Assembly: GCF_003334765.1 (NCBI RefSeq) | Contig: NZ_QOWT01000051.1 | From: Escherichia coli | Lineage (GTDB): Bacteria; Pseudomonadota; Gammaproteobacteria; Enterobacterales; Enterobacteriaceae | Strand: one strand, 5' to 3' | Length of the DNA stretch: 19,576 nt | Part shown: in pieces, positions 8,483 to 16,268 of the stretch | Layout of the letters: every line of letters begins with the position of its first letter | Position numbering within the stretch: the stretch's first letter is position 1 | The notes under the pieces: model-generated | The model's database searches: none | What the model saw: the letters and a program-made list of their open reading frames with translations, nothing else | Told to the model about the DNA's origin: nothing | Made by a program: the position numbers and the translations under genes

Positions 8483-9340
8483 TCAGGGGGAAGCTGTGGC
8501 CAGCCGGCTGTAATTGCGGTTACGCGACAGAATCATGCGCTCCTTCACACGACGCTCCACTTCACGTTTTACCGCCTCACGACTGGCAGTGAAGCGCCCT
8601 TCCGAGATTTCACGCGTCAGCTGTCGTTTCACCAGGGTGACGATATCCTGACGTTCCCTGCCCGCATCACGACGCGCACGGGCACGCTTTATTCCCCGGG
8701 ACTTAAGCTCTGTCTGGTAACTGCGGAAACGCTCACGCACAAAACGCCAGGCTTTCGCTATCAGTTCATCCATACCCAGGGTATCCAGCCCCTGCTTTTT
8801 GCGCTGTTTGTTTTCCCATACCACACGGCTGCGGCGCGCAGCTGCCACTGCATCCTCAGACACATCAAGGGCGGCAAACAGCGCCAGTGTGAACGTGATA
8901 TCGGTCGGAATGTAGCACCCGATAAGCGGGTCATATTCCGTCTGGTAGGTAATCAGTCCCAGCTCTGACAGGGACGTCAGGGCCCGGGTGGCCCGGGTGA
9001 TGGAGAGTTTTCCTGCACCGGACTCTGTCGCCAGTCCGCACTCAATGGCCAGCGTGGTGATGGAACACTGGACGCGGTTGGCCAGCGGGTCATAATGGAA
9101 ACACAGCCCCTGCAGCAGCGCATCAATAGCCCGTCGACGCAGCACCGGTGGCATGCGTCGACGCAGACCACGCGAACGGGCATGCGCCACATGAATAGCG
9201 AAATCAAAACGGGAGCTGAAGCCCACCGCTTTTTCCATCAGTTTTTCGCAGAACTTCAGCGTTCCGGCACCTTCACGGGGTGTGAACACCGGATTCGGGT
9301 TCTTTACCTGGCGGTAATACGTTTGGTGAAGATCAGTCAC
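8483..9340 (-). CDS. repA1: IncFII replication initiator RepA1
   Basis: Near-identical to the recalled R100/R1 RepA1 ([40 protein letters not shown]...[12 protein letters not shown]). The likely start is the GTG giving MTDLHQ (285 aa); the track ORF 8483..9352 begins four codons earlier. Confidence 0.95.
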
Positions 9341-9407
9341 ACCATCCTGCACTTATGTTGCACAGAAGGAGTGAGCACAGAAAGAAGTCTTGAACTTTTC
9401 CGGTCAT
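9333..9407 (-). CDS. tap: RepA leader peptide Tap (repA6), translationally coupled to repA1
   Basis: 24-codon [27 protein letters not shown] whose TGA overlaps the repA1 GTG start (GTGTGACTG); size and position match the IncFII tap peptide. Confidence 0.6.
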
Positions 9408-9418
9408 ATAACTATACT
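9390..9418 (+). promoter_or_regulatory. CopA antisense-RNA promoter
   Basis: -35 TTGAAC, 17-bp spacer, -10 TATACT, directed opposite to repA mRNA. Confidence 0.55.
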
Positions 9419-9425
9419 CCCCGCA

Positions 9426-9511
9426 TAGAGCAACAGCTTCTATGCAGTTTCTTGTTAGCCCCGGTAATCTTCTCTTAGTCGCCAAACCTGGTGAAGATTA
9501 TCGGGGTTTTT
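9426..9511 (+). ncRNA. copA: CopA-like antisense RNA (copy-number control)
   Basis: About 85 nt from the predicted start to an intrinsic terminator: long stem CCCCGGTAATCTTC/GAAGATTATCGGGG followed by TTTTT. Lies in the repA leader between copB and tap, antisense to repA mRNA. Confidence 0.6.
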
Positions 9512-9566
9512 GCTTTTCTGGCTCCTGTAGATCCACATCAGAACCAGTTCCCTGCCACCTTACGGC

Positions 9567-9578
9567 GTGGCCAGCCAC
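9567..9578. promoter_or_regulatory. Candidate CopB operator at the repA promoter
   Basis: Inverted repeat GTGGC-ca-GCCAC between copB and the CopA region, where CopB is known to repress PrepA in IncFII plasmids; exact promoter elements not resolved. Confidence 0.3.
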
Positions 9579-9644
9579 AAAATTCCTTAAACGATCAGTA
9601 ATCTAGCACTAATCTTCTGAACACTCAAGAATGTAAGCCCATCA

Positions 9645-9899
9645 TCACATGCATCGTTTTTGCGCTTCACTTTTTATCAGTGCGGTCAGAACTTCAGCCT
9701 GGGTCAGGCCATCTTCATTACACATTTGCATGAGCATGGCCTTATACTTTGGTTCGAGAAATACTTTTACTTCCTTGAACGAAGCTCTTTTACGGGCCAC
9801 TGATAATCTTTGTTTCTCTGCATCAGAAAGCGGATTCCCCTTTCTGTATGCTCGTTTTGCGCCAGATGAGGAAGTCACTGTATTTTCTGTCTGCGACAT
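9645..9899 (-). CDS. copB: Replication regulatory protein RepA2/CopB
   Basis: 84-aa ORF MSQTENTVTSSSGAKRAYRKGNPLSDAEKQRLSVARKRASFKEVKVF..., matching recalled IncFII CopB; upstream of the copA/tap/repA1 cassette. Confidence 0.9.
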   Translation of the reverse strand: MSQTENTVTSSSGAKRAYRKGNPLSDAEKQRLSVARKRASFKEVKVFLEPKYKAMLMQMCNEDGLTQAEVLTALIKSEAQKRCM

Positions 9900-10078
9900 C
9901 TCGCCTCCTCAATACTTAAACAGGGATCGTTTCGCAGAGAATACTACAGTTTTTTGAAATCAGCGACTTGAAAGTTGTGACGATGATCTGTGTTGGCGCA
10001 CAAATCATGTCTGATTACGACCGTTTAATGTAATTTTGATAATAAAATGACTGAAAAGTAGGAAATGCTTTAACCAGG

Positions 10079-10110
10079 GTACCGGCCCCGGGCGGGACCG
10101 GCAGTTTCTA
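10079..10110 (-). terminator. 3' stem-loops of the hok/srnB-like mRNA
   Basis: Downstream of the toxin stop on the minus strand: hairpins GGGGAC-ggaa-GTCCCC and CCGGTCCC/GGGGCCGG. Could be terminator and/or fold-back structures of a hok-type mRNA. Confidence 0.3.
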
Positions 10111-10195
10111 GCATTTCGGGTGTCTGCCCCTGAAATACCTCACACTTCCGGAAAGCGGGGACTTCCGTCCCCGCCCGGCAGCTTACTTCCGTGCT

Positions 10196-10330
10196 TCAGG
10201 CCAGAGTTACCTGCACCACTGTATTTCCCCTGTGAATATTCAGTTCACATAACTGTTCCCTGAATATCAGTGAAAAACACAACACCGTGGCGCACACGGC
10301 AAGCAACCCGATAAGGGTATATTTCGTCAT
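10196..10330 (-). CDS. srnB: Hok/Gef-family type I toxin (SrnB-like), C-terminally shortened
   Basis: 44-codon ORF MTKYTLIGLLAVCATVLCFSLIFREQLCELNIHRGNTVVQVTLA, close to recalled F-plasmid SrnB. The canonical C-terminus LAYEARK is replaced by an early TGA; restoring 2 nt (CTGGCCT-AC-GAAGCACGGAAGTAA) would recreate it. Below the ORF-track length cutoff. Confidence 0.75.
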   Translation of the reverse strand: MTKYTLIGLLAVCATVLCFSLIFREQLCELNIHRGNTVVQVTLA

Positions 10331-10335
10331 AAACT

Positions 10336-10365
10336 TTGACATCTTTGCAAAGAAGAGGCTAGAAT
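10336..10365 (+). promoter_or_regulatory. Promoter for a Sok/SrnC-like antisense RNA
   Basis: Near-consensus -35 TTGACA, 18-bp spacer, -10 TAGAAT on the strand opposite the toxin, overlapping the toxin start and firing into its leader; the RNA 3' end was not located. Confidence 0.5.
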
Positions 10366-11150
10366 CAGTAGTGCATCATGCAGACCTCACGAGTTAATGG
10401 ATTAACGAGTGGGGTCTTCGCATTTCTGAAACCTGCGTCTTATTCAGCCATTCTTCGGTCATCTGCAGCAGTTTTCTTGCATCGTGACTTCTGAGCAACG
10501 GAATGCCAGCCTGCCTCAGAACCTCTTCCAGAAGAGTATCCCAGCATCTGCGTTCCGAACGTAAATGACTGTCATCAGCCAGCTATACTGCTGCAACAAT
10601 ACTGAACGAACGCCGTTCAACGATAACCACATCGACATGCACTGAGATACCATCCTGAATAACTGCCACCACTGGCGCGATCAGATATTAGTTGTCTGGA
10701 GATTCAGGGGACAACCTAACTTGAGCCCGCTATAGCGCGAAGCCGAAAATTATTGTTCGTATGCTCCCGCTGGTCCAGAATGGGAATTCCCTCTGGCTGA
10801 TGTTGAACTGTCATGGAGAATTGAAACTTGTTTAAGACTTTGGCAGCCTACTGTTTTTAATACACCCAATAAGGTATGAAGATGAAACTAGGGAAGTTAA
10901 TACCGCCATGAAAAGATAAATAATACCCGTGGAATATATTTCCTCATGTTACTCTCCATATCAAATAAATGGCACCTGTATTTCAGACATCCTGAATATT
11001 ACAGCACACATTGAACAACACCTTATTTTGTGAAATTAATCACAAAATATAAAATCACGACTTAATACGGAAAAAACTCTGTGCTACTCAGAACTGTCCG
11101 GTCATACTGCCCGACCGGATATTAAAAAAAGCAAATCTCATGCATTATTC

Positions 11151-11195
11151 AGCCTTCTGAATCCCTGGAGTAATGAAGGCTGCTTTTTTCGTTAC
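11151..11195 (+). terminator. Intrinsic terminator-like hairpin
   Basis: Stem CAGCCTTC/GAAGGCTG with a 17-nt loop followed by CTTTTTTC on the plus strand, after an AT-rich region with no convincing ORF. Confidence 0.3.
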
Positions 11196-11413
11196 ACCCT
11201 TCCCCGGCTGCGCCGGTGGCAGTGTTCAGCCCTTTTTCGGGCAAACTGCTGCCAGTCTGTCCGGGGCGCAACACCGGCAGCCCGTCGCCATGCTTCTGCC
11301 GCTTCCATCCAGCGTCCACTGACCTCCAGAATAACGGCCCGGCTTCCGGCACGCTGCCAGCGCCAGACCTGACCGTTCCGTGAACTGTTTCTGAATCCAT
11401 TCATCTTTATCAC
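11192..11413 (-). CDS. Hypothetical small protein downstream of finO
   Basis: 73-aa ORF (MIKMNGFRNSSRNGQVWRWQRAGSRAV...) in the position of the small conserved ORFs found downstream of finO in F-like plasmids; overlaps an alternative-frame ORF at 11149..11400; no recognisable motif. Confidence 0.3.
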   Translation of the reverse strand: MIKMNGFRNSSRNGQVWRWQRAGSRAVILEVSGRWMEAAEAWRRAAGVAPRTDWQQFARKRAEHCHRRSRGRV

Positions 11414-11535
11414 TCCTCTTTAACCCGTCAGTATTATGGTGTTAAATAATCTACTGAATTGGCTTCCTTTCGGGTACGGAAGTTATTTCCTTTTAAGCCT
11501 TATTTCCCTGCCTCCTCTCTGATGGAGGCTTTTTT

Positions 11536-12096
11536 TTATTTCTCATCAAGCACGGCCTGAAGTTCTGCCTTTATCCGGTTCTGGCGGCGGATTTTATCCA
11601 GACGCGCTGCGGCATACGCTTCCTCCTCCTGAGAAATATGCTCCGTCACATACCCTTCCGTGTCATACCGGCAGGCACCGGCTTTCATGGCACACAGATA
11701 GCTTTCTGAACGGGTGATGGCCTTCAGCGCCCTGCGCAGTTTTTTATGCGAGAGCGGGATATTCCGCTGCGCCACGTCTTCCAGTAACACGTCCCGGATA
11801 CCGCAGGCCAGAAGCCGGGGCGTGTCACCGTCAAACAATCCCGGCCACCAGGGTTTCAGGGTATTCACGGCCTCATCCAGCGTGGGCAGGTTCAGATAAA
11901 TGGACAGTGCCTGTCTGGCCTGCGCTTTTTTTGCCGCCAGCTCTGCTTCCCGGGCTGCTTTCTCGGCCAGCTTCTGCTTTTTCACCTTCCACTTTGGTGG
12001 CGTGGTGACATTGATGATGGTTTTCCGGCTGCGGACAGGCGTCTCCCCTTCCGTTTTCCGCTTCAGTGTCAGTACCGGTCGCTTCTGCTCTGTCAT
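11536..12096 (-). CDS. finO: Fertility inhibition protein FinO (ProQ/FinO-family RNA chaperone)
   Basis: 186-aa ORF essentially identical to recalled F/R100 FinO ([50 protein letters not shown]...). Confidence 0.95.
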
Positions 12097-12150
12097 GCTG
12101 TGTTCTGCCTCTGACGAATCATCCTGTTACGGTCAAAGATACCACACCCG

Positions 12151-12500
12151 TCACAGCGCCAGAACGCCCAGCACAGCCAGATGACAGGCGTAGAATACCG
12201 GGAAAAAATCCCCGGGCCAGAAACGGGGTAATGATTTTCCTGCACACGACACCAGACCAACGGTCAGCACCGTCATCAAAAGACCAGCCACCGCCGCTGC
12301 ATCACTGGTGGCAAGGTTAAGCGCCGGAATAACAGCCAGCAGGCAGGCGACCAGCGCCAGACGTTCCGCTCTGTCTTCCGCCCGGTACAGCCGGTGGCTG
12401 ACTGCCAGCATCAGCAGCCCGGCAATGCCGTAACTGGTGCCGGACAAGGGCCCCCACAGGGCCATCAGAAGAATGGCCGCTGCTGTACGCCACCCGGTCT
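12151..12500 (-). pseudogene. traX: traX 3' fragment (pilin acetylase), 5' part deleted
   Basis: Encodes GWRTAAAILLMALWGPLSGTSYGIAGLLMLAVSHRLYRAEDRAERLAL...FYACHLAVLGVLAL, matching the C-terminal 115 or so residues of F TraX. The frame is entered without a start codon at about 12498, where it abuts the traI fragment. Confidence 0.85.
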
Positions 12501-12951
12501 ATCACATAGCGGTCATGACTGCGTGTCTCCGGGTTCCACTGCTCCATCACCATCCCCGGACGGTACATATCCCGCAGATAACGGCTCCGGCTGTCCAGCC
12601 AGACCGGTGACAGTGCAGTCATGGTCACCTCAGGGTGTCCGAGCACGCCCTGCGTTTTCAGCTCACTGCGAATGGCCTGTGTCAGTATGGCCTGTTCCCG
12701 TACCCCGCTGACCTGTGCCACGCTCTCTTCTCCGGCTTTCACGCTGGCCGCAAAATCTCCGGCCAGCCGGGCATAGCGGACATTACGGTCCGGTTCACTG
12801 ATGATGGTGGCCGGTCGCTGTTCTCCCCCCTGCCAGCGATATGTGTTCACCCCGGCATCCTTCATGGCCATCAGCGCACTGCCTGTACCGGTTCGCTGCC
12901 CGCTGTCGGTTATCAGGACCTGTACGTTATGACGTGCGGCACCATCCAGCC
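12501..12951 (-). pseudogene. traI: Internal fragment of relaxase/helicase gene traI
   Basis: In-frame segment ARHNVQVLITDSGQRTGTGSALMAMKDAGVNTYRWQGGEQRPATIISEPDRNVRYARLAGDFAASVKAGEESVAQVSGVREQAILTQAIRSELKTQGVLGHPEVTMTALSPVWLDSRSRYLRDMYRPGMVMEQWNPETRSHDRYVIDRV matches recalled F TraI. Both flanks of track ORF 12317..13129 are out-of-frame read-through. No relaxase N-terminus and no oriT. Confidence 0.7.
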
Positions 12952-13280
12952 GGAATGATGCCACGCTCTGCCAGCATGTTGAGTGCTGCCAGTCGGCGAC
13001 CACCTGCGGCGACACCGTAACGGTCACCAGGCAGGGTATGCACGACCAGATTCTGCAACAGGCCAACGCCCTTAATGGACTCCGCCAGTTCGCTGACGGA
13101 CTCTGCGGAATACGGCACCGTGCGCACATTCAGCGGTGATTTAATCAGTGAAGCCAGCGGCACACTCACTTCCTCCGTCTGCGCCAGCAGGGCAGACAGG
13201 ACTGTTTCCTGCGTTTTTACAGATTTAAGGCTTGCTTTGCGGGTGGTTTCTGGTTCACACTTCGTTACAGGCATAATCAT
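12952..13280 (-). pseudogene. 5' fragment of a ParB-like nuclease-domain gene (F leading region)
   Basis: Track ORF 12927..13280: ParB/Srx-type N-terminal domain (GLLQNLVVHTLPGDRYGVAAGGRRLAALNMLAERGIIPA), then non-homologous residues and a stop right at the junction with the traI fragment. Full-length homologs are much longer. Confidence 0.6.
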
Positions 13281-13332
13281 CCCCTTATAATTGCTTATGT
13301 CCTGCCGGACGTTCGCGCGTCCGGCACCTCTC

Positions 13333-13593
13333 TTACTTAAGAATCCCGAAATCCCTGATGTACCGGTTCATCCAGTACCCGGCACAGTCCTCAAAATTCC
13401 AGGAGCGCCAGATCAACGTGCCATCCTGACGGGCAACCAGGCGAAAATGCGTTCCCTGATCATCCTCGATAAAGACATTCCGGTACTGTGCGGCAACGGC
13501 TTCAGCCTGTTCGCGGGTAAAGGAGCCGTCAGGCAGCCCCTGAAATATTCTGAAATATTCGCTCATCCTCATCTCTCCGGTGATGCCCCGCAC
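13333..13593 (-). CDS. Conserved small leading-region protein, function unknown
   Basis: 86-aa ORF ([86 protein letters not shown]) between the ssb remnant and the ParB-like fragment; no recognisable catalytic motif. Confidence 0.5.
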
Positions 13594-13621
13594 TGGACGG
13601 GGCGGTTGTCACTGTCTTAGT

Positions 13622-13885
13622 TCAGAACGGAATGTCGTCATCGAAGTCATACGCGGGTTCAGACGGCTGCTGAGGCTCCGGCTGCGCGGCCTTACGTCCA
13701 CGGCCTTTCGTTTTCGCGCCACCTTTTTTCGTCGCGTCAGCACTCTGTGGCTGCCCATTCTGCTGAGGCTTCGGTTGCGCCTGAGCGTTCTGCTGTGGTG
13801 CACTCCCCAGCATCTGCATGGTGCCCGTGGTCTTAACAAGAATTTCAGTGACGTAACGGGTGATACCGTTATCTTCCCAACTACG
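13622..13885 (-). pseudogene. ssb: ssb 3' remnant (plasmid SSB C-terminal region with acidic tail)
   Basis: Track ORF 13622..13924: from about residue 14 it matches the end of the SSB OB-fold and linker ([27 protein letters not shown]...) and ends with the hallmark tail DFDDDIPF. The first 13 residues are not SSB-like and the upstream 270 nt an SSB N-terminus would need are occupied by the methyltransferase gene. Confidence 0.7.
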
Positions 13886-13923
13886 GGCAGACGGGCATTT
13901 ATCCTCCCGCCAGCCCTGTGTCA

Positions 13924-14487
13924 TCAGGCACGCAGACGAATAATCATCGTCGGGACATCGGTATAAGCAAACGTGCCGCGCGGCAGCTCCTCGCGGACGT
14001 CAGAAAACGGTAACAGCTTCTCCTGCTGGCGCGGCCCGTTCAGACAGACGGCAACCAGCACGCCACCCGGACGCAACAGGGAAAAAGCCCGCAGGATATG
14101 CCGGATATCCTGCCCGTGACTGAACGGCGGATTCATGATAACCCGGCTGTAATACTGCACCGGCTGCCATTCCATGAAGTCGCCACACTGAACCCTGACA
14201 CCGTTAAAATTTTCCCGCAGATACCGGACCAGCCCGCTGTTAATCTCCACCGCATCACACATGGCCTCCGGCGCGGTATCCCGAATCGCCCGCAGTATGG
14301 CCCCGGTGCCGGCAGAGGGTTCCAGAATGTGATCACGGTTGCTGATTTCCGCCAGCGTCACCAGGCGATCACAGACCGGGGCAGGAGTCACAAAAAGCTG
14401 AGATTCAGCCCGGATTTCAGCAACCGGCGCGACGTTATCCAGCCTTGCACGCATCAGCCGGATACGTTCTCTTAACTGACTGTGCAT
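13924..14487 (-). CDS. Small class I SAM-dependent methyltransferase (leading-region orphan MTase, amino-MTase NPPF motif)
   Basis: 187-aa ORF with SAM-binding motif [12 protein letters not shown] and catalytic-type motif IMNPPFSHG; its stop overlaps the start of the ssb-remnant ORF. Substrate (DNA vs RNA) cannot be decided from sequence alone. Confidence 0.7.
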
Positions 14488-14533
14488 GTCATTATCTCCG
14501 TCATCCCCCGGGGATTTCCCGGGGGGATATACC

Positions 14534-15895
14534 TTATTTCTGTGGGATTTCCGTGATTTTCATGTCGGTAATATACACATTCACCAGGCGGAAATTATTG
14601 TCCATTGTGCGGCGGTAGCGGTATGCCCCGTGGTCTTCTGTCTCTGCCACACTGCGCACGGCCTTACAGTCCCGGGGCAGGGCGGCCCACTGCGCCTTTG
14701 TCATTTCCCGGAAACCTTCCCCCGGATAGTTGACTACCGGCGGACGCTTCGCGGCCTGACTGGCGACGGCAGCCTCTTCTGCCGATGGTGCTTTGTAGTC
14801 CGTGATGCGATCGGGCGTCACTTTCATCGTGCCGCTGTACCCGAGAAAACTGTAATTCGGCGTTGTGACTGAACTCACCGCCCCGTTGCTTTTGTTCACG
14901 CGGATGATGGTCAGCCACTCGCCCCGGCTGAAAACCTGTCCGCCCGGCTCAAAATCCTGTGTCCGGGTAACCACGCCGCCGCTTTCGTCCAGCATGGCAC
15001 GCTCATAGATCAGGCGGTTCTGATAGTGGTTAACCCAGCGTTGCTGATGCTGAATCTGCCGTTCATGACAGCGGATCGCAATTTCGCGGGCCTGCTCCGT
15101 GGTGATGATGTCATCATCCAGGGCCGACCATAACGATCGACTTCCTTCATACTGGCTTTTTTCTGCCGGGCGCGGATACGTATCCAGCGGGAAACAGGCG
15201 CTGATATGGTCATGACTGCTGATGAGTTTTGCCATATTCAGATCCAGCGATTCAGCCCGCCACATCGTCAGATATTTCTGCGACTGCGCGATGGTCTTTT
15301 CAGCCTTGCGCAAATCAGCTTCGATTTTTTTGATACGACGCCAGCGAACGTCCGGGCGTTCTTTATACTTCGCGTGAAGCAGTGCCGACCGCGCCCGCTC
15401 CTCCCAGTATTCCGCACGTTCAAAGAGCATCACGGCACGTTTCATGCCGTTTTCAATACGCTGCGCATCACGACGGGCGCGGCGTTCGCTGTGATGCCCC
15501 ACAAGAATGGGCTGACCGGGCGGGATCATCGCGGCCAGTCTTTCCACTTCATCAAGTGCCTGTGCGGATTCACTGGCCCGCTTTCCGCTGTATCCGGTAA
15601 ACCGCTCCGCCCGTGCTTCCTGACGTTCAGCGAGCGTGCTGTCTTCATCCTCAATCTCTCCGGCAAGTGAGAGGAGCACGTCTTCCCGGCCCGGTGTCCA
15701 GGCTGGCGCGACAAACAGCGCCTGTTTGGGTGCCCAGCGAAAACCGGCATCATGCACTTTTTTATACGTCTCCGGGTCAAGACGTGACGCGGCATACAGG
15801 CGCAGTTTGTTGTCATCCGGTGAGTAGGTCGCGCGGTACATCTGCACAGGGCTGGCGGCTTCCGGGGCGGTCATGGTGATTGCTGCTAATGTCAT
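14534..15895 (-). CDS. Large conserved leading-region protein of unknown function
   Basis: 453-aa ORF, no transmembrane or catalytic motif recognisable by eye, charged and possibly coiled-coil central region. Position and orientation match conserved large ORFs of IncF leading regions; family not assigned. Confidence 0.55.
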   Translation of the reverse strand: MTLAAITMTAPEAASPVQMYRATYSPDDNKLRLYAASRLDPETYKKVHDAGFRWAPKQALFVAPAWTPGREDVLLSLAGEIEDEDSTLAERQEARAERFTGYSGKRASESAQALDEVERLAAMIPPGQPILVGHHSERRARRDAQRIENGMKRAVMLFERAEYWEERARSALLHAKYKERPDVRWRRIKKIEADLRKAEKTIAQSQKYLTMWRAESLDLNMAKLISSHDHISACFPLDTYPRPAEKSQYEGSRSLWSALDDDIITTEQAREIAIRCHERQIQHQQRWVNHYQNRLIYERAMLDESGGVVTRTQDFEPGGQVFSRGEWLTIIRVNKSNGAVSSVTTPNYSFLGYSGTMKVTPDRITDYKAPSAEEAAVASQAAKRPPVVNYPGEGFREMTKAQWAALPRDCKAVRSVAETEDHGAYRYRRTMDNNFRLVNVYITDMKITEIPQK

Positions 15896-15946
15896 AAAAT
15901 GTTCTCCTTCCGTCTGTTGCCGCCCCTCGCGGGGCGGCTCACCTCA

Positions 15947-16177
15947 TCAGTTAAAAGCGCGTTTCAGTTCGAGTGTGCGGAGCACCTGCCCGAAGGCCGT
16001 GTTTTTCATGGCGGGGATGTGTACACCACGCCCCCGGTGAAAACTCCGGGCTATGTGTCGCCCGAAGGCTTTCAGCACGGGGTCAATTTCCGGCGCGGGG
16101 ATGTCTTCGCGTCTGAAACGGGGATGACGGCGGGGCTTTACAGCCGCTGCGGAAGGTGAAACAATGCTTACAGTCAT
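15947..16177 (-). CDS. Hypothetical small basic protein
   Basis: 76-aa ORF upstream of the 453-aa gene on the same strand, overlapped by an 86-aa plus-strand ORF (15899..16159); coding status uncertain. Confidence 0.25.
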   Translation of the reverse strand: MTVSIVSPSAAAVKPRRHPRFRREDIPAPEIDPVLKAFGRHIARSFHRGRGVHIPAMKNTAFGQVLRTLELKRAFN

Positions 16178-16239
16178 AAATGGATTCCTTATGACAGTTT
16201 GGTAACAGTGCCTTAAAGACTGGTTGCACAGTCTCTTCG

Positions 16240-16268
16240 GCGTGGATTAAGCAGGTCCCTGACCTGCT
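16240..16268 (+). terminator. Terminator-like hairpin
   Basis: GCAGGTC-cct-GACCTGC followed by TTTTTTC on the plus strand. Confidence 0.3.

Follow-up and report, generated by a model that had tools for sequence, protein, structure and literature searches.

Probable microhomology-mediated loss of the transfer region in an F-like Escherichia coli plasmid, with one deletion end at a recurrent breakpoint in traI

The window, that is, the whole stretch of 19,576 nucleotides (nt) of Escherichia coli contig NZ_QOWT01000051.1 (assembly GCF_003334765.1) analysed here, holds the collapsed transfer region of a plasmid. This is very probably an IncFII-type F-like plasmid in which three RecA-independent, microhomology-mediated deletions, together 39.7 kb, took away the transfer region and some of the leading region. 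What remains is non-coding debris (the traX 3' end, the part of traI for amino acids (aa) 520–674, the 5' end of a ParB-like gene and the 3' half of ssb) and an orphan finO. One of the deletion ends, traI nt 2022, recurs as an endpoint of other deletions.

The breakpoints were mapped on pE1246_1 (NZ_CP025574.1, fetched as locus L008), a reference with the whole leading region and an intact tra operon. The window was aligned with this locus by BLAST, and each joint was then compared base by base in a three-way comparison. The window matched the reference in four collinear blocks with 99.1–100% identity:

Window 10347–12495, L008 48001–45846: finO and traX nt 403–747; 99.4% over the whole match, with 1 mismatch in the traX part.
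Window 12491–12953, L008 42175–41713: traI nt 1560–2022; 99.1%.
Window 12947–13887, L008 6767–5827: ParB-like nt 1–334, DUF905 gene, ssb nt 257–522; 100%.
Window 13884–18621, L008 4738–1: methyltransferase gene onward; 99.98%.

The window runs opposite to L008, as its reverse complement, so the plus strand of the window corresponds to the transferred (T) strand. The blocks meet at three junctions:

12491–12495, junction A: CACCC on the plus strand, 5 bp; 3,675-bp deletion.
12947–12950, junction B: CAGC, 4 bp exact, 6 of 7 matching through 12953; 34,952-bp deletion.
13884–13887, junction C: CGGG, 4 bp; 1,092-bp deletion.

The repeat at junction A is common to traX nt 403–407 and traI nt 2018–2022. 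This deletion removed traI nt 2023–5271 and traX nt 1–402, and with them the active helicase and the C-terminal domain of TraI. The deletion at junction B spans from nt 335 of the ParB-like gene to traI nt 1559, and the one at junction C, which is confined to a sub-lineage, took ssb nt 1–256 and the upstream intergenic region. One copy of the repeat was kept at A, B and C, and both parental flanks explain every base of the joints, so neither a remnant of an insertion sequence (IS) nor filler DNA is present. All three junctions thus show the collinear flanks and single repeat copy that define a microhomology-mediated (RecA-independent) deletion. An IS copy at the joint, as an IS-mediated adjacent deletion would leave, was absent from A, B and C, and the nearest IS (IS66 family) lies more than 3 kb from the junctions, at about 17–19.5 kb.

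A first-pass annotation of this DNA had described a three-part fusion of a ParB-like 5' fragment, about 450 bp of internal traI and about 350 bp of the traX 3' end, joined near 12951 and 12498. BLAST against pE1246_1 placed all of these pieces where it had put them, on the minus strand, the two tra fragments measuring 463 bp and 345 bp and the junctions lying within 3–7 bases of those mapped here. The alignment that it had proposed as a check yielded exact breakpoints with 4–5 bp of microhomology and no IS remnant. Its count of at least two deletions holds in that deletions of 3,675 and 34,952 bp explain the region exactly; it had missed the third junction at 13884–13887, and a single complex event could also have produced the first two.

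The source contig of the window is short (19.7 kb) and of draft status, and the three-part fusion was found in none of the complete records of PLSDB or of RefSeq E. coli, although each flank singly has relatives with 99–100% identity. Both facts would suit an assembly artefact, a chimeric contig joining separate places. The same junctions are, however, present in at least 12 independent assemblies or read sets, including contigs of 63–80 kb and one released years earlier by a different project, and the junction sequence is the same in every locus that holds it. Misassembly, which the first-pass annotation had named among the findings that would overturn its reading, is therefore excluded for practical purposes. 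The 270-aa open reading frame (ORF) at 12317–13129, which crosses junctions A and B, has an exact counterpart in EIG68448.1 ('protein traI') of Escherichia sp. 4_1_40B, encoded on the 80.6-kb contig JH660546.1. This contig is 99.98–100% identical to window 2317–19502, save that its ssb and the region upstream are intact. Fifteen contigs, drawn from public sequencing runs and several NCBI assemblies, carry the 184-aa ORF of junction A; in nine of the nine places listed the ParB fragment lies directly upstream, and most of them have an intact 173-aa SSB. An exact look-up of the 117-aa ORF of the ParB fragment returned no record; the overlapping 270-aa and 184-aa ORFs are on record. The 100-aa SSB fusion ORF, the marker of junction C, was found in four places. 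As most carriers of A and B have an intact ssb, junction C is later than the other two.

Candidates for a closer relative were rejected. The nearest ones for the same fusion, pB16EC0481-1 and pVE-T2_1, have different joints. pSCU-318-1 has the closest backbone; as an ancestor it was rejected, since the traI segment is missing from it and a group II intron sits in its ssb–methyltransferase interval.

The order of A and B relative to each other depends on whether they were separate events. It is possible, though somewhat unlikely, that both arose in one complex event, with two template switches during a single replication restart (of the type of microhomology-mediated break-induced replication or fork stalling and template switching, MMBIR/FoSTeS), so that the traI piece would be a templated island. 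No assembly or protein was found to hold one of the window's junctions A and B without the other, the ParB fragment being always directly upstream; both junctions have 4–5 bp of microhomology, and the 463-bp piece keeps its orientation. Yet the lack of an intermediate in the databases is weak evidence, and joints between traI nt 2022 and traX stand alone in NZ_LR883051.1 and pCTXM-2269, which keep traI nt 1–2022 and traD. A junction of type A is thus viable by itself.

The remnants and their neighbours are ordered along the minus strand, from 11.5 to 16 kb, as finO, TraX, TraI, ParB-like, DUF905 and SSB ORFs, methyltransferase and DUF3560. Pfam assignments were taken from identical genes in sister loci.

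11536–12096, minus strand: finO, intact, 186 aa, with FinO_N and ProQ Pfam matches.
12151–12495, minus strand: traX 3' remnant, traX nt 403–747 (345 nt), stop codon at 12151–12153.
12491–12953, minus strand: internal traI remnant, nt 1560–2022, aa 520–674 (463 bp).
12947–13280, minus strand: ParB-like 5' remnant, 334 nt or about 111 codons, 100% identical to pE1246_1 6434–6767.
13333–13566, minus strand: DUF905 gene, intact, 77 aa, the leading-region neighbour of ssb.
13622–13887, minus strand: ssb 3' remnant, nt 257–522.
13924–14487, minus strand: class I S-adenosylmethionine-dependent methyltransferase gene, intact, with junction C 37–40 nt past its stop.

The traX remnant lacks the first 402 nt of the gene and differs from pE1246_1 traX by the one mismatch; its 104-aa C-terminal ORF matches Pfam TraX (locus L011). 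The traI remnant is part of the vestigial-helicase/single-stranded-DNA-binding region, matches only ssDNA_TraI_N and TraI_2B in Pfam, and contains neither the relaxase domain nor the active helicase. The 184-aa ORF spans this piece and junction A. The complete leading-region ParB-like gene is about 1.96 kb long and is named 'ParB/RepB/Spo0J family partition protein' in related records; a ParB_N match was found on a 115-aa ORF of the fragment. The fusion exists at the DNA level and is not translational: the ParB frame enters traI out of frame and stops at 12927, and the traI frame likewise enters traX out of frame. In SSB proteins the N-terminal half forms the OB fold, and this half of ssb is deleted. 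The first 13 residues of the 100-aa ORF at 13622–13924 are not from ssb; they are encoded by retained DNA just downstream of the methyltransferase gene.

Next to finO lies the IncFII replicon, marked by CopA at 9425–9515; IncFII_repA, RepA1_leader and a regulatory RepA were recognised in identical sister loci, and replicons of FIA/FIB type also occur in this plasmid family. CopA and AS-pc02 (11111–11295) were the only Rfam matches in the window.

The reference interval deleted at junction B covers the remainder of the ParB-like gene, psiB, a hok/sok module, DUF932 and SLT transglycosylase genes and oriT, followed by traM, traJ, traY, traA, all the pilus and mating-pair genes, traD and traI nt 1–1559. 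Consistent with this, the window had no match to the F/R100-type oriT nic sequence at up to 3 mismatches; the same R100-type pattern, as a positive control, matched L008 13006–13022 on the minus strand, inside the junction B interval. FinP, the traJ 5' untranslated region (5'UTR) and sok were absent from the window by Rfam and were all detected in the intact reference. Neither TraD nor any of traA–traG appeared in the window's ORF list or in similarity searches, and of TraI, only aa 520–674 is present, without the TrwC-type relaxase domain or the active helicase. The absence of oriT, traM/J/Y, the pilus and mating genes and the relaxase N-terminus, which had been noticed on first inspection, is accounted for by the deleted interval. 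The FinOP/traJ circuit is likewise incomplete in the window: finO is intact, FinP and the traJ 5'UTR are absent, and the deletion of FinP and traJ has left finO an orphan. Sister plasmids have an N-terminally truncated finO, one cut to 73 or 147 aa, or none at all, which suggests that the gene is under no or only weak selection. DUF3560 is also broken in sister plasmids, a sign with the loss of finO of ongoing decay.

The DNA inspected for transfer genes comprised the window, about 2.5 kb in sister contigs and a further 10 kb or so on each side in sister or similar-backbone contigs, in total about 40 kb of a replicon of 63–80 kb. No tra or mob genes were found beyond the window ends in this ~10 kb on each side, which holds group II intron, resolvase, transposase, NACHT, integrase and Rep3 genes. 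Since the F-type oriT, the relaxase domain, TraD and the pilus genes are missing, neither self-transfer nor mobilisation by the F pathway is expected. The earlier statement that the replicon can neither transfer itself nor be mobilised stands for the window and about 20 kb of flanks. Extrapolated from the ~40 kb of sequence at hand, the whole 63–80 kb replicon would be immobile, and the plasmid would be locked into its host. Once conjugation was lost, leading-region genes (ssb, the ParB-like gene, psiB and others) would have been left without function and would have decayed.

On the traI side, junction A ends at nt 2022 (…GACCGGGTG^, after codon V674; L008 42175). Homologues of the junction A ORF include many fusion proteins in which the TraI part ends exactly with ...ETRSHDRYVIDRV (V674), while the tails differ. 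These tails were mapped onto the reference, as were complete plasmids and contigs. In this mapping, nt 2022 was the shared upstream end of deletions that join it to about 20 different partners downstream. Some lie in traX (nt 47–50, 272, 405, 408, 427, 441–444, 462–468, 555–562 and 606–610) and others in traI (nt 2161, 3269, 3484–3490, 3604, 3970, 4052, 4703–4706 and 4733); the rest include the region upstream of the uilS hydrolase gene and the flank of an IS256-family element. Among the complete plasmids that share the endpoint are that of enterotoxigenic E. coli (ETEC; NZ_LR883051.1), pO55 (NC_017657.1), pCTXM-2269 (NZ_MF535908.1), p5735-2 (NZ_CP154889.1), NZ_JBUXMI010000002.1, NZ_JBYMBY010000004.1 and NZ_JBWJYS010000002.1. 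The endpoint occurs in both traI alleles seen there (GTGATAGAC and GTTATCGAC), in sequences 93–99% identical to the reference. Where joints were read at the DNA level, four of five had 2–5 nt of microhomology within the terminal GGGTG; the fifth (pO55) had a 2-nt match to the reference on the downstream side of the break, and for a sixth partner no position on the reference was found.

Other donor positions in traI (483, 1557, 1821 and 2280) had one partner each. A group of dog plasmids ends at nt 2280, so the searches were not blind to other endpoints. A search with TraI 675–834 found no reciprocal fragments that start at codon 675 behind foreign sequence, only frameshifted native traI in error-rich assemblies; the hot spot is thus one-sided. 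One metagenome scan gave 2 contigs with non-native continuations after nt 2022. A literature search returned no report of a hot spot at this position.

Acceptor sites were also reused: traX 405–408, 438–444 and 606–610, and traI 1432–1447, 1552–1564 and 1873. The acceptor at traI nt 1552–1564, the region of junction B, has at least 5 upstream partners. Acceptor ends of upstream deletions cluster on L008 also at traI nt 1255–1261, 1432–1459 and 1513–1516, each with several partners, and the partners at traI acceptors lie in the ParB-like gene, the psiA region, traB, traC, traD, traG, traK and traW. Within traX, nt 405–408 and 438–444 were reused by different donors.

On the T strand, traI nt 2027–2036 can pair with nt 2042–2051 to form a hairpin with a 10-bp stem, one G·T pair and a 5-nt loop, overlapped by a second hairpin at nt 2045–2063. 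It starts 5 nt beyond the donor end of junction A and has a predicted energy of -9.1 kcal/mol; only 2.5% of random positions have a hairpin of such stability, and the best local hairpin ranks 71st among 33,264 windows from oriT to traX. The junction C donor hairpin has -8.0 kcal/mol (3.3% of random positions). If replication of IncFII plasmids proceeds through the tra operon in the direction of transcription, the T strand would serve as template for the leading strand. Were a polymerase to stall at the base of the hairpin, it would hold a nascent 3' end ...GGGTG(ACAG), exactly the end found in the joints. Alternatively, the 3' end could come from a site-specific nick at the hairpin base, followed by fork run-off. 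In either case, the end at nt 2022 would be rejoined through 2–5 nt of microhomology to sites up to several kb downstream. The window's deletions may accordingly have formed by slippage or template switching of the nascent strand, with synthesis at junction A probably stalling at the T-strand hairpin just past nt 2022. We consider the chances about even that traI nt 2022 is a sequence-intrinsic, one-sided deletion hot spot, at which a 3' end is made repeatedly by hairpin stalling or a site-specific nick and rejoined downstream.

Two other causes of the hot spot were rejected. If Chi sites were responsible, they should be present; no GCTGGTGG was found on either strand of the 48-kb reference locus, and traI nt 2070–2205 has 7/8 Chi matches only. 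For cleavage by TraI at a pseudo-nic site, the match to the nic region, compared by eye, is weak; termination of transfer there would also keep the wrong side of traI, and the idea was retained only in the form of a nick plus fork run-off.

A precise traI end with variable partners is also what a lost IS would leave, if an element at nt 2022 had been removed with adjacent DNA by excision of the transposase/IEE type, closing with a microhomology joint. IEE-dependent excision is reported to remove adjacent DNA, from a few bases up to more than 40 kb, and to leave joints with microhomology (PMC9943667; bioRxiv 10.1101/2023.06.07.543989). In metagenome contig OLQG01006656.1 (L026), 2241–2664 is a traI nt 1602–2025 fragment with an IS3-family end on one side, at nt 1602, and, exactly at the nt 2022 endpoint on the other, a segment with an IS256-family transposase; this segment also lies beside an IS21 fragment in pCV839-15-p2. 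The abutting elements of this contig favour a lost IS. Against it, no plasmid was found with an IS at nt 2022 flanked by native traI, and the presence of the endpoint in two divergent alleles, in sequences 93–99% identical, would call for repeated insertion at one base. The one-sidedness of the hot spot, with no codon-675 fragments behind foreign upstream partners, also speaks against such a scar, and we regard this origin of junction A as unlikely.

Many unrelated remnants keep traI nt ~1600–2022 and lose both sides, and a 184-aa ORF covers the window's piece. This could mean that the 463-bp piece is kept by selection, with a cis site, a small RNA or the TraI 520–674 peptide setting the edges of the deletions. 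Selection, however, could not fix a single-base boundary across about 20 partner types. Other remnants end at codons 609–661 or are without any traI (pVE-T2_1), no Rfam family matches the piece, and the searches were seeded with the traI piece, so that the pattern carries an ascertainment bias. Retention by selection is very improbable.

Several points weigh against our account of the collapse. Neither junction A nor junction B was seen by itself in an intermediate, and two sequential deletions cannot be told apart from one complex event. The junction B donor hairpin is ordinary, with -4.8 kcal/mol, a value matched by 28% of random positions. The stalling model presupposes the direction of replication expected for IncFII plasmids, and the family also has the FIA/FIB-type replicons. 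As to immobility, the ~40 kb seen are part of 63–80 kb, and a second oriT or a mob module could lie elsewhere. Finally, the lineage is found in many samples and so spreads somehow; clonal expansion could account for this.

Classical illegitimate recombination in E. coli plasmids proceeds by slippage or microhomology deletions at hairpin-induced pause sites. The window resembles it in its 4–5 bp repeats, the single copy kept, the lack of a recombinase site and the hairpin-base donors of A and C; it differs in that the deletions are very large (up to 35 kb) and the hairpin stalling is predicted.

At least 25% of classical F-like plasmids are without essential tra genes, and massive tra deletions that leave traI, traX and finO arose repeatedly and independently (PMC5102898). 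The tra-deleted plasmids of MOBF12 group A in Shigella and E. coli O104:H4 (Fernandez-Lopez et al. 2016, PMC5102898) share the IncFII-type backbone with the window. In them, too, the distal tra end (a traI piece, a traX piece and finO) survives by the replicon, and oriT has been lost along with the coupling protein and the pilus genes; the plasmids are presumed non-transmissible, and the deletions recur independently. The window differs in that traI and traX are cut to fragments of 463 bp and 345 bp, the leading-region ParB-like gene holds the upstream break, and further deletion has begun on ssb.

The ETEC plasmids NZ_LR883051.1 and NC_014232.1 have the same traI break (nt 2022), a traX partner 36 bp from that of the window and a microhomology joint. 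Unlike the window, they keep traI nt 1–2022, traD and the upstream genes, and their traX partner is nt 441–444, not 408. A comparison of the flanks over 811 bp gave 24 differences from the window, mostly within the traX 3' end, so the ETEC event was probably independent. Plasmids of the pO55/pO157 lineage (NC_017657.1) likewise hold an internal traI fragment that ends at nt 2022–2024 between two joints and is followed by traX and finO. In pO55, in contrast, the fragment is nt 1261–2024 and the downstream partner is traI nt 4733, so that the traI 3' end and the whole of traX remain; the upstream joint is with traK, and oriT is still present together with traM through traE.

Further observations concern the vicinity of the junctions. 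In pE1246_1, which is otherwise intact and conjugative-looking, the ParB-like gene (L008 6434–8398) is already split into ORFs of 112, 351 and 154 aa, the first of which ends 5 nt from the position of junction B. A group II intron (ltrA) lies between ssb and the methyltransferase gene in pSCU-318-1 (L007 4331–7576) and in TO217 plasmid 3 (L002 1265–4791). The intron-bearing interval of these relatives is the interval deleted at junction C; in the immediate sister plasmids it is free of an intron. A repeat of about 470 bp at window 16407–16874 has two further copies in intact relatives, 90–96% identical, located upstream of ssb and upstream of the hok/psiB region. These lie within deletions B and C, which is why a single copy is left in the window. 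The repeat may be a leading-region single-strand promoter or initiation element.

The window also carries cargo that is unusual for an F-like plasmid. A block at 239–4227 encodes CydA-like (1817–3217) and CydB-like (3217–4227) subunits of a cytochrome bd oxidase, a small DUF2474 gene and, on the minus strand, a pyridoxal phosphate-dependent aminotransferase (239–1537). The cydAB-like block was also found in CP057477.1 and in many metagenome contigs.

In conclusion, the collapsed region is a further example of the well-documented decay of F-like plasmids. Its practical value is small, and replicon or relaxase typing would not flag the plasmid as transmissible; its junctions are precise markers for tracking this plasmid lineage. 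The endpoint at nt 2022 might be the only feature likely to surprise a plasmid specialist. If the hot spot is real, F-like plasmids would have an inherent weak spot at traI nt 2022 by which their relaxase is lost time and again in independent events, and this could help to explain why traI/traX/finO remnants are so common. The repeated tra deletions, which earlier comparative work called puzzling, would then gain a concrete and testable cause.

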